Origin: an uncultured archaeon
GTDB lineage: Archaea; Asgardarchaeota; Thorarchaeia; Thorarchaeales; Thorarchaeaceae
Length of the DNA: 32,000 bases
NCBI GenBank assembly: GCA_964648855.1
Contig: CAZYLT010000001.1
Span: 270,001 to 302,000 of the forward strand
Reading direction: 5' to 3'
Position numbers and translations under genes: made by a program. Shown here in pieces: positions 860-3,803 of this stretch. Within the stretch, counting starts at the first letter, position 1, and each line of letters begins with the position of its first letter. Below the pieces are notes generated by a model. It was not told the DNA's origin. It worked only from the letters and a program-made list of their open reading frames with translations, and searched no databases.

Positions 860-1663
860 TCAGTATCCTCCTTTAAACCATATACCGATGCCATCAACAT
901 TGTAAGGTTCATCGCTGAAATCAATGTCATAGTTAGATTCGATGGAGCAGTCAATGGAGTGTTGAGTGTCCTTGATATAATAATCCAATTCCAGCCTGCT
1001 TGAATCTTCCGTTTTTATTTTTACTCCAGCTCTAAAACCAACTCCTTTTGCACTATATGCGAATCCCAATTCTACAAAATAGAGGTCTGTCCAAGAGTAT
1101 GACATCGAATATGTTGCACTGCAGTCTTCGCATACATGCACATTTTCATGATAATCACCCGAAGTACCTGAAAGGTCATTATAGAGTAAGTCATAATCAC
1201 CTGCTTCATTAAATCCGAAGATGCCCGATCCTTGGGATGATTCCTCTACAGATACTAATTCGCATGTGTAGTAAGAATTGTACATTGTTATGATGTAATA
1301 TACATCCCAAGTACAAGAATACTGCTTTGCTATTATGCAATGCTCTACCCTATTATCAGGGGTATCAAATGATTTCGAGAAGCCAATTTCTCCTTCGAAG
1401 CCCCCGTCTACACTCCAGCCTCCAAAACCTCCACCTAATTTCACTCGTGCTTCATGGGTTGTAGCCTCGGTAAATGTCCCATAACTGCTATCCCCGGGAG
1501 GGTCATATAACGTGAAAACCGGAATCCATGACAGAGAGGTATCGCGCCCAACGTAGATTTTCTGGTAAGCGGCCACTGGGCTTACATTCATAAGAAAAAC
1601 TACCGAAAGAACAAAGACGAAGAGCATCGCTCTTGAACGTCCACATTTTAGAATTTCAGTCAA
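860..1663 (-). CDS. Secreted beta-rich hypothetical protein
   Basis: 267 aa with a signal peptide (MLFVFVLSVVFLMNVSPVAA), a YDPPGDSSY motif and Ser/Thr/Gly/Tyr-rich beta strands. A TATA-like element lies ~23 nt upstream. Alternative ATG start at 1627. Confidence 0.75.
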   Translation of the reverse strand: MTEILKCGRSRAMLFVFVLSVVFLMNVSPVAAYQKIYVGRDTSLSWIPVFTLYDPPGDSSYGTFTEATTHEARVKLGGGFGGWSVDGGFEGEIGFSKSFDTPDNRVEHCIIAKQYSCTWDVYYIITMYNSYYTCELVSVEESSQGSGIFGFNEAGDYDLLYNDLSGTSGDYHENVHVCEDCSATYSMSYSWTDLYFVELGFAYSAKGVGFRAGVKIKTEDSSRLELDYYIKDTQHSIDCSIESNYDIDFSDEPYNVDGIGIWFKGGY

Positions 1664-1750: not shown

Positions 1751-2515
1751 ATGAATGGGATTAAAATGCAAATTAAAAAAGATGAAATCGTCCTGGTTTT
1801 TTTGACTGCCGCCCTTCTCATTCTCTTCTTTGTTATCCCCCCCCTGTTGATGACTAAAACAGCTAACAAAACAATGGGAATTAACCTTGTCCATGATTCC
1901 GAGGGAACCATGGGTATTTCAAATGGAGTAATAACAGGCAACCTGAATGTATCGATGGACAAAACTGAGAACCATGTAGCAGGTCTATGGACGATTCAAA
2001 TGCATTTTGACTCCAACTATTACTACAATAACATGTCATACGCTCTTAATTTGGACTATGACCTATGGGATGGAAGATATATCTTAAACCAATCAATCTC
2101 CATTAAAATGAAAATCGCGGATTATCAGCAGACATACCAATCTTCTATAGGACCCGGTGTTTTGGCGATAACTCCATTTCTAAATGACTTCAATATAACC
2201 TACGTTTCTCCAGTTGGTCAGCAGCAACTTGTTCTCATTTACTGGGCTTATAGTCTTTCAACTGAGGACAATTCCGTTGGAAGTTTTTCTTGTGCGTTGA
2301 GTATTAATATGAGCATTGCACAAAGTTCAGGAGGATTGAGTAGTGCTCAAACGAGAATCACATCTGCATCTATATTGCTTCCGTGCAGTTTGGTTGCTAT
2401 AGAGGCAATTAGGAGACACAGAAAAAGCAGACCGGAGAATCAAAAACTCGCTATACGTCATAATGGTGCTAGGGGTAGTGATGCTTCAGTCGCAAACGAA
2501 AGTTGTGCGGCTTAG
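1751..2515 (+). CDS. Membrane-anchored hypothetical protein
   Basis: 254 aa: N-terminal hydrophobic helix (IVLVFLTAALLILFFVIPPLLM), Asn/Ser/Tyr-rich extracellular part, then a C-terminal hydrophobic segment followed by RRHRK. Confidence 0.7.
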   Translation: MNGIKMQIKKDEIVLVFLTAALLILFFVIPPLLMTKTANKTMGINLVHDSEGTMGISNGVITGNLNVSMDKTENHVAGLWTIQMHFDSNYYYNNMSYALNLDYDLWDGRYILNQSISIKMKIADYQQTYQSSIGPGVLAITPFLNDFNITYVSPVGQQQLVLIYWAYSLSTEDNSVGSFSCALSINMSIAQSSGGLSSAQTRITSASILLPCSLVAIEAIRRHRKSRPENQKLAIRHNGARGSDASVANESCAA

Positions 2516-2723
2516 TGAATTAAGTATTCGTTGCTCGGTCTTTTTCAATTCCCAAGGTGTTTTCCAGATGAATTTCTAACATCAAGCTTGGCTGTAGCAT
2601 TCTTAGCCAAGAATAGGTTCAATTGTCACCAAATTCAAAGCTGAAACATTAATCCTTCTTCAGCTCCATTCTTATTGCAGACGAGAGATCTGCTTTGCGA
2701 AAACTCATCACTGCATGACGTGA

Positions 2724-3145
2724 GAGGGCTAGGGAAATGGACTAGAGCTGTTTCTGCAGCTCGAAGTGGGCAACCGAAAGCCCGGAGGAAATCTTCTTCC
2801 AAAGGGAGGTCCTTACTCTTCACACAAAGGGCTGCATTAGGTCCTGGAGAGTCCGCGGCTGTTCACCATGCTCAGACGAGTTTTGCTGATTTCGGTAACG
2901 GAGCCAACGAGGGTCATCATAATCCAGCTGTAGTAAGAACTGTGGAAGCCCTCTCTGTGGCTGAGAGTCATGCCTCAGGACATGCATAGTAGAAGAAAGC
3001 TAGGGCCGTGGGAGGAATGCCATTCCGATGAATACGGATAAGGCCCCTGCTGATTAAGCAGCCTTCGGGTATGCTAGGGGCGATGACGCTGGCAGGGGAC
3101 GGGTGGAACACGGGAGGTTCGAAAGTGTGAGTTCACTCAGCCCTT
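2724..3145 (+). ncRNA. Candidate large structured non-coding RNA, class not identified
   Basis: Terminal stem GAGGGCT/AGCCCTT, nested long-range helices, many local hairpins, C(UUCG)G and GUAA tetraloops. G-U pairs favour the plus strand. No credible ORF. Confidence 0.65.
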
Positions 3146-3227
3146 AGAAATGGTTATGCCAGTAAATACATAAGTATCATGAGAAGACCATCTGTGAAGC
3201 TTCACCATAAAAAAAGGTGTTAACACA

Positions 3228-3803
3228 ATGTCACTCGATTTTGCTAAAGGCATAACGGAGTTCCGTGCTCATGGCAGGGGTGGACAAGGAATTGTCACCT
3301 CGAACCAGATGCTGGGAAAAGCAGCTCTTGCAGAGGGCAAATATATTCAAGCATTCCCCGAGTTTGGACCGGAACGGACCGGTGCCCCCGTAAAAGCATT
3401 TTTGAGGATCAGTGATAAGCCGATTCAGATTTACGCACAAGTATATCATCCTGATGTAGTAATCTGCATCGACCCAACACTGCTTCAAGTGCTAGACCCG
3501 ACAGAGGGTCTCAAAGAAGATGGCACTCTTGTACTTAATTCAACAGATACACCAGGCGATATTCGAGAGAGGTTTGGTTTTGAAGGTGGTAAGGTAGTAA
3601 CTGTTGATGCGAGCAAGATTGCGATGGATATCCTGGGACGGCCCTTCTACAATATGCCAACCTTAGCTGCAGCTATAGAAGCAGTAGGGACAGTGAAACT
3701 GGAGACCGCGATTAATGAGGTCATGGAGCGCTATCACGGTAAAGTTGGAGAACTCAATAAGGCGGCAATGGAACGAGCCGTTAAGGAGGCGAAGATTGGA
3801 TGA
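3228..3803 (+). CDS. porG: Pyruvate/2-oxoacid:ferredoxin oxidoreductase gamma subunit
   Basis: HGRGGQG and FPEFGPERTGAPV motifs. AGGTG RBS upstream. Confidence 0.95.
   Translation: MSLDFAKGITEFRAHGRGGQGIVTSNQMLGKAALAEGKYIQAFPEFGPERTGAPVKAFLRISDKPIQIYAQVYHPDVVICIDPTLLQVLDPTEGLKEDGTLVLNSTDTPGDIRERFGFEGGKVVTVDASKIAMDILGRPFYNMPTLAAAIEAVGTVKLETAINEVMERYHGKVGELNKAAMERAVKEAKIG

Follow-up and report, generated by a model that had tools for sequence, protein, structure and literature searches.

What is the G+C-rich island that precedes the por operon in this archaeon? The window, the whole 32,000-nt stretch of an uncultured Thorarchaeaceae genome that was analysed, contains a 713-bp gap between a gene end at 2515 and the por start at 3228, and within it lies an island of 0.51-0.54 G+C between flanks of ~0.41. 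The preliminary description read positions 2724-3145 as an unidentified structured RNA. Comparison with other copies in this and related genomes leads to a different identity: positions 2684-3159 are probably what remains of the right-hand end of a Thorarchaeota TnpB element that no longer has its TnpB gene, namely the last ~100 tnpB codons and an overlapping ~440-nt omegaRNA scaffold. The features of the locus are as follows.

2684-3022, plus strand: remnant of the tnpB C-terminal tail, the part after RuvC-III (tblastn, BLASTP; frame open from 2675, in-frame stop at 2987-2989)
2720-3159, plus strand: omegaRNA-type scaffold homologue, a conserved structured RNA of ~440 nt (nhmmer, alignment A1, consensus structure)
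3131-3139, plus strand: GTTCACTCA motif, near-invariant in the family alignments
3160-3180, plus strand: flank directly 3' of the scaffold, the would-be guide position, here the por promoter region (family alignment, por comparison)
3228-3803, plus strand: first gene of the por operon (ORF list), outside the element and given for context

Relation of the element to tnpB

Four TnpB proteins align with the window by tblastn in frame 2, from 2684, 2702 or 2714 to 2980, 3016 or 3022 (E 1e-11 to 1e-24), and the same search finds no TnpB similarity upstream of 2684. The ORF at 2675-2989 (104 aa) matches TnpB residues 455-538 by BLASTP with 41% identity (E 9e-15). Because this homology is confined to 2684-3022, the window holds the last ~100 tnpB codons and ~140 nt of downstream sequence, and nothing more of the gene. 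At the nucleotide level, homology is unbroken from the zinc-ribbon and RuvC-III codons of tnpB (NADxNG..NIA) into the window element. TnpB omegaRNAs are encoded at the 3' end of tnpB and in the sequence that follows (PMC10097598); homology to precisely this region therefore points to a TnpB omegaRNA-type scaffold.

Protein-coding relatives of the element are present in the same genome (3.1 Mb, 62 contigs, 94.6% complete). On each of contigs C19, C28, C21 and C4, a divergent copy overlaps the 3' end of an ORF (558-624 aa) that lies on the same strand. Matches of the encoded proteins are to Pfam Cas12f1-like_TNB (E 1e-10 to 2e-11), to NCBIfam guided_TnpB (E 1e-19, short of the curated cut-off) and to PDB chains of the TnpB/Cas12f/Cas12n type. 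These ORFs are the sole intact TnpB genes of the genome; two more matches are broken, one of them directly preceding a truncated scaffold copy. The element lies over the last ~100 codons in all four intact TnpB genes and at 25 loci of other Thorarchaeota.

The TnpBs keep the aspartates of RuvC-I (D243) and RuvC-III (D437). The canonical RuvC-II Glu position is occupied by Gly (G345), and an invariant Glu (E333) lies 12 residues upstream; clades that use an alternative Glu have been described by Altae-Tran et al. (PMC10691335). With Gly at the canonical position, nuclease activity of these TnpBs is presumptive.

Conserved structure and 3' boundary of the scaffold

Positions 3-439 of the nhmmer family profile map to window 2720-3156 with 376 bits. 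The preliminary description had taken a folding energy similar to that of dinucleotide shuffles as a sign against a functional RNA, and the MFE fold of 2715-3155 is indeed no better than such shuffles (z -0.91 on the plus strand, -0.45 on the minus strand). By that measure the case for an RNA is weak, and the decision is left to comparison with other copies. Homologues and covariation, which the same description had proposed to seek, are both found. Alignment A1 (MAFFT) comprises 67 full-length copies from 17 genomes with a mean identity of 68%, and RNAalifold assigns it 84 pairs, 61 of them with compensatory change. In an 81-pair consensus, 94.8% of the cells are paired, compared with 41-46% when the partners are slid, and 597 compensatory cells stand against 84-121. 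None of 500 column shuffles reaches the observed values of pairing or compensation. G-U cells (609) far exceed A-C cells (99) in the consensus pairs, which places the RNA on the plus strand. Codon-position entropy in TnpB-type copies is 0.74/0.72/0.82, a weak periodicity, and periodicity is absent from TnpB-less mobile copies (0.59/0.57/0.59), so that constraint on the RNA dominates. The consensus has two domains and a candidate pseudoknot, all on the plus strand.

2726-2933, plus strand: 5' domain, helices 91-99% paired, helices 6-8 compensated at every pair
2726-2730/2808-2812, 2781-2783/2804-2806, 2787-2791/2796-2800 and 2815-2820/2847-2852, plus strand: helices of the 5' domain (A1 consensus)
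2853-2859/2927-2933, 2870-2873/2878-2881, 2884-2889/2904-2909 and 2893-2894/2899-2900 (GNRA-type loop), plus strand: further helices of the 5' domain (A1 consensus)
2920-2924, plus strand: candidate pseudoknot 5' arm (UAAUC) in an internal loop, pairing with 3153-3157
2940-3113, plus strand: 3' domain, closed by 2940-2944/3109-3113 and 2951-2953/3101-3103
2955-2959/2985-2989, 2961-2964/2975-2978, 3006-3009/3034-3037 and 3015-3018/3022-3025, plus strand: inner helices of the 3' domain (A1 consensus)
3044-3052/3090-3098 (helix 15), 3054-3060/3072-3078 (UUCG loop) and 3081-3082/3087-3088, plus strand: further inner helices of the 3' domain
3153-3157, plus strand: candidate pseudoknot 3' arm (GUUAU), the last bases before the conservation boundary

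Seen in this light, the preliminary description was right that 2724-3145 is structured: the RNA is conserved and lies on the plus strand, and its character as a large, multi-domain, lineage-specific structured RNA is borne out, but only part of the proposed helix list survives. The pairing of CCCCTGCTG (3044) with TGGCAGGGG (3090) is helix 15, in which 8 of 9 pairs are compensated, and covariation also supports the hairpin GGAGGA/TCTTCC, the GUAA-capped hairpin and the UUCG hairpin. Other proposals stand in part. GGACT (2739) with GGTCC (2808) is 93% paired, but the register 2726-2730/2808-2812 is better (99%) and position 2741 covaries with 2767. The hairpins GAGCTG/CAGCTC and AGGGCT/GGTCCT show 60 and 48 compensatory cells, yet they vary in length and are 63-64% paired in the MAFFT alignment. 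CTCTC/GAGAG is 76% paired and has 6 compensatory cells; its competitors are two helices that covary, 2955-2959/2985-2989 and 2961-2964/2975-2978. The long-range pairing of TGTTCACC (2860) with GGT(G)GAACA (3102) is 90% paired but nearly invariant, with 2 compensatory cells and no covariation, and it clashes with both of the covarying helices that close the 3' domain. The remaining proposals fall away: the terminal helix 2724-2730/3139-3145 (47% paired) is specific to the window copy, CT(T)CACAC (2818) with GTGTGAG (3125), that is CTTCACAC/GTGTGAG, is not conserved (49%), and the GGGC/GCCC hairpin is unsupported (40%).

The candidate pseudoknot joins the internal loop of the 5' domain to the end of the scaffold. 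Its arms are 91.4% paired, compared with 16-50% when slid, and carry 17 compensatory cells against 1-6; for example, AUGAC/GUCAU in one copy becomes AUGAA/UUUAU in another. Immediately beyond it, ~80 copies cease to resemble one another once ...GGTTAT(N) is passed, and each continues with bases of its own. Such a copy-specific flank is what would be expected of a guide read from the flanking DNA. Following published TnpB biology, intact relatives would produce the RNA from the tnpB 3' region, or, in the mini-elements described below, from a promoter of its own; TnpB would bind the scaffold, and the part of the RNA that runs on 3' into the flanking DNA would act as the guide.

Copies, mobility and known relatives

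The element belongs to a repeat family. With window 2700-3160 as query, BLAST gives 19 matches in this genome that are 66-83% identical, and the nhmmer profile finds ~30 copies or fragments, many cut by contig ends. Of 24 genomes that belong to the same taxonomic family, 16 carry the repeat, mostly in several copies each; 16 genomes drawn from the other families of the phylum have no copy. A pattern scan of the genomes of 185,579 species returned at least 119 stretches, nearly all from Candidatus Thorarchaeota MAGs; among the matches listed, the exceptions are one with the label Promethearchaeota and another on a short contig binned as Woesearchaeota. The 99 full-length Thorarchaeota copies divide into 25 that are TnpB-linked, 53 that are TnpB-less and 21 that are undecidable. 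At least 12 contigs of the source genome begin or end inside the repeat (C45, C31, C6, C2, C11, C43, C48, C36, C18, C10, C25 and C34). The repeat itself explains these contig ends and is a main cause of breaks in the assembly; the true copy number is uncertain.

The 5' GUGAG, the 3'-anchored pattern of truncated copies and the positions at contig ends led to a group II intron or retroelement being considered. This candidate was rejected: there is no match to Rfam Intron_gpII or to D1-D4, the neighbouring ORF is TnpB and not a reverse transcriptase, and each copy lies either between genes or over tnpB. Six full copies were also searched for a host gene split by the insertion, with no usable result.

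Many TnpB-less copies are mini-elements of ~550 bp, which consist of a left end of ~120-190 bp that contains subterminal repeats, then a TATA box that precedes a conserved GGACUAGG by ~25-30 nt, and the scaffold. The subterminal repeats read TGTCAGA in the source genome and CTGTAAGA/TCTTACA in genome G012. Representative mini-elements are located as follows.

Source genome (G000): C8:17520-18085, C56:495-1075, C6:105880-106450, C20:370-940 and C34:4590-5155
G012: loci L023, L046, L050, L052, L053, L055 and L058

Matching 6-bp direct repeats (consensus TCNRGA) flank 7 of 10 copies in G012 as well as the C8 and C56 copies of the source genome. Overall, flanking hexamers match in 16 of 55 copies, against 4.2 expected from mismatched pairs, a count in which some loci may be orthologous, so that the number of independent matches is lower; 12 of the 16 lie at -118 to -143 from the RNA start. 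Locus L087:1478-3277 (G012:C28:70477-72276) combines a left end of the mini-element type, a frameshifted tnpB and an intact scaffold. Its tnpB is 5'-truncated, and residues 251-551 are spread over frames 1, 3, 2 and 1. L087 is therefore intermediate between a full element and a mini-element, and mini-elements are accordingly internal-deletion derivatives.

Elements of the IS200/IS605 type move by peel-and-paste and make no target-site duplication. An assignment to this type (IS605/IS1341) was rejected: no Y1 TnpA (PF01797) is matched in the 94.6%-complete genome, and 6-bp repeats flank the mobile copies. Mechanistic details from ISDra2 may accordingly not transfer to this family.

Further observations concern the neighbourhood of the TnpB loci. 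A giant ORF of 1,450-1,900 aa lies divergently 150-480 nt upstream of every intact TnpB gene in the genome, and also at 13 of the 25 TnpB-linked loci of other Thorarchaeota, for instance at the following coordinates.

Source genome (G000): C28:3178-7638 (minus strand), C4:181673-185776 (plus), C19:37265-41314 (minus) and C21:14625-16889 (plus)
Other loci: L135:546-5144 (minus), L184:2233-7938 (plus) and L100:1-4347 (minus)

Searches of Pfam, PADLOC, NCBIfam and Atlas give no match for the giant protein. Conservation is highest over its N-terminal ~560 aa, which contain a D...ExK motif (D314, K339/K341). A model of the N-terminal 600 aa has a pLDDT of 67; Foldseek finds nothing in the PDB at E<=0.001 and returns weak rows to PD-(D/E)xK nucleases (Dna2, Cas4, MGME1 and NucC). 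The protein is a candidate partner or mobilising enzyme of the TnpB element.

At the TnpB locus on C21 (L040), a convergent tRNA-Gly(TCC) at L040:311-385 ends 8 nt from the scaffold end at L040:394, so that the would-be guide is antisense to the 3' end of the tRNA, and the C28 locus has a tRNA-like 3' fragment in the same place. A general association between the scaffold 3' flank and tRNAs was rejected. An intact tRNA occupies this place in 4 of 166 copies across genomes, which makes it a feature of a sub-lineage and no rule.

Several properties are common to this family and the ISDra2 omegaRNA (PMC10097598). Both lie on the tnpB strand, and the Thorarchaeota scaffold overlaps the last ~100 codons; both have a sharp 3' conservation boundary followed by copy-specific sequence; both have a pseudoknot beside the guide or boundary, an equivalence by position only; and the protein partner of both is a TnpB with the RuvC-I and RuvC-III aspartates and a zinc ribbon. 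The omegaRNA of ISDra2 measures 247 nt, with 116 nt for the core scaffold and 16 nt for the guide (PMC10097598). The Thorarchaeota scaffold, in contrast, spans ~440 nt, several times the length of that core, and has at least 19 helices; it has no sequence or Rfam similarity to the omegaRNAs described. It also differs from TnpB omegaRNA systems in that the genome has no Y1 TnpA, the canonical RuvC-II Glu is replaced and tnpB has been lost at the window copy. Stand-alone omegaRNAs exist and function in trans (PMC10691335). Like these and the PATE-like mini-elements (PMC10691335; Meers et al., bioRxiv 10.1101/2023.03.14.532601), the TnpB-less Thorarchaeota modules are scattered and outnumber their effector, and many are clearly mobilised, with left end, omegaRNA and right end. 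Unlike PATE-like elements, the mobile copies carry their own TATA box and apparent 6-bp direct repeats (TCNRGA). The GTTCACTCA motif has been described downstream of Asgard tnpB genes (Altae-Tran et al., 2023; PMC10691335), and the Cas1H-Asgard-1/-2 TnpB groups of that study likewise have an Asgard host and this motif downstream of tnpB. The present family differs from these groups in that no Cas1 adjoins the four TnpB genes, the two Cas1 genes of the genome being on other contigs, and in that the stretch just 5' of GTTCACTCA is not hypervariable.

The window copy and competing readings

The setting of the window copy is particular to its lineage. The por regions of G021, G006, G003 and G002 align with the window por from just 5' of the start codon. 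No scaffold copy lies upstream of por in G021, G003 or G002, which represent three related genera; the G006 contig begins 78 nt before por, and the same-genus genome G001 gave no por match. On the 3' side of the element, AAATACATAAG (3164-3174) is common to the por upstream regions of G021 and G006. The absence of the element in three genera, with a por promoter block adjoining it here, indicates that a lineage-specific insertion or rearrangement placed this copy where it now stands, its end (3159) 69 nt 5' of the por start codon. The element does adjoin por, as first described, but a conserved association with the operon is rejected, given the three related genera whose por upstream regions are without it. 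Two genes upstream of the element, at 860-1663 (minus strand) and 1751-2515 (plus strand), occupy an AT-rich stretch of 0.35-0.41 G+C. In the related genomes compared, neither gene has a counterpart before por, so the entire por upstream region has been rearranged in this lineage.

The window copy itself is degraded. It carries 19 mismatches, mostly transitions, at the 151 columns that are at least 92% conserved, and ranks 65-66 of 67; its tnpB tail frame is interrupted by the stop at 2987-2989. No mini-element left end is found in the window even at E<=100, and the copy has no clear promoter and no TATA box at the distance seen in mobile copies. Its 5' edge is of the TnpB-linked type, cut at 2684, which makes it a 5'-truncated fragment distinct from the intact mini-elements. 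On these sequence features, it is most likely an inactive relic. It keeps 76 of the 81 consensus pairs and an intact pseudoknot, and at 7 of the 19 conserved sites where it deviates, a pair or a GNRA loop is retained; some structural selection, and thus function, may therefore persist. At most, the copy might serve as a trans guide for the four TnpBs encoded elsewhere in the genome.

That the window copy is a working stand-alone omegaRNA is the strongest of the competing readings, although we consider it unlikely. Its transcription would start at a weak promoter near 2671-2679 or come by read-through of the gene that ends at 2515, and it would be loaded in trans on one of the four TnpBs. If the RNA still acts as a guide, the guide sequence would be that of the por promoter (3160-3180), and TnpB would cleave or bind an element-free por allele, with homing or retention as the result, or modulate por transcription. 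The precedent of stand-alone omegaRNAs acting in trans (PMC10691335), the excess of TnpB-less over TnpB-linked copies (53 against 25), the intact pairs and pseudoknot and a flank that is a por promoter block common to other genera are consistent with such a role. Against it stand the 19 mismatches at near-invariant positions, where the RNA probably contacts protein, the missing left end and TATA box, and an insertion upstream of por that other genera do not conserve.

A second possibility, which we rate as quite improbable, concerns the family as a whole: a distinct TnpB system and not an IS605 derivative, made up of a TnpB with a rearranged RuvC-II, a ~440-nt omegaRNA, the conserved giant protein with its PD-(D/E)xK-like motif and self-promoted mini-elements with 6-bp target duplications. 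If this were true, the TnpB-less copies, possibly including that of the window with the por promoter as its target, would become distributed trans guides for DNA targeting or gene control.

There is very little to recommend an independent new class of large ncRNA, an SRP or RNase P RNA that has diverged, or a leader or riboswitch that acts on por in cis. The element is a large, G+C-rich, conserved structure directly upstream of por, and the Rfam search proposed at the outset gives no match at gathering scores and noise only at E<=10. It resembles archaeal SRP and RNase P RNAs in size, in its G+C-rich multi-helix build and in some short words. Yet neither covariance model matches the window even at E<=10, and the genuine genes lie on other contigs: Archaea_SRP (RF01857) at G000:C2:49700-50010 with 107.8 bits and RNaseP_arch (RF00373) at G000:C6:41563-41894 with 155.4 bits. 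Moreover, related copies continue into tnpB coding sequence and the window keeps an in-frame TnpB tail, ~30 copies lie beside unrelated genes, and related por operons do without the element. The preliminary label of an unidentified or novel ncRNA accordingly yields to a multi-copy TnpB omegaRNA-type scaffold, homologous to the tnpB 3' end and the region downstream. Scarcely credible is a small protein encoded by ORF 2675-2989, with the RNA structure incidental: its frame is open for 104 codons and frames of 100-150 aa stay open in most TnpB-less copies, but it is the TnpB tail frame without a Pfam match, TnpB-less copies show no third-position excess, the conserved columns are the paired ones, and compensatory change is strong.

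Stand-alone, mobilised trans omegaRNAs and Asgard TnpB groups with the same downstream motif are already known; the ~440-nt scaffold family and its structure are absent from Rfam, and in the literature collection searched no paper links Thorarchaeota with TnpB. For the window, the result removes a false lead: the region upstream of por contains no new housekeeping or por-regulatory RNA, and what it holds is debris of a TnpB mobile element or at best a spare guide. For the family, it defines an omegaRNA scaffold that has not been catalogued, is unusually large, covaries well and is confined to Thorarchaeota, a group of Asgard archaea. The alignment and consensus structure could seed an Rfam family and improve the annotation of Thorarchaeota genomes, and the family offers a new TnpB/guide pair for biochemical study.
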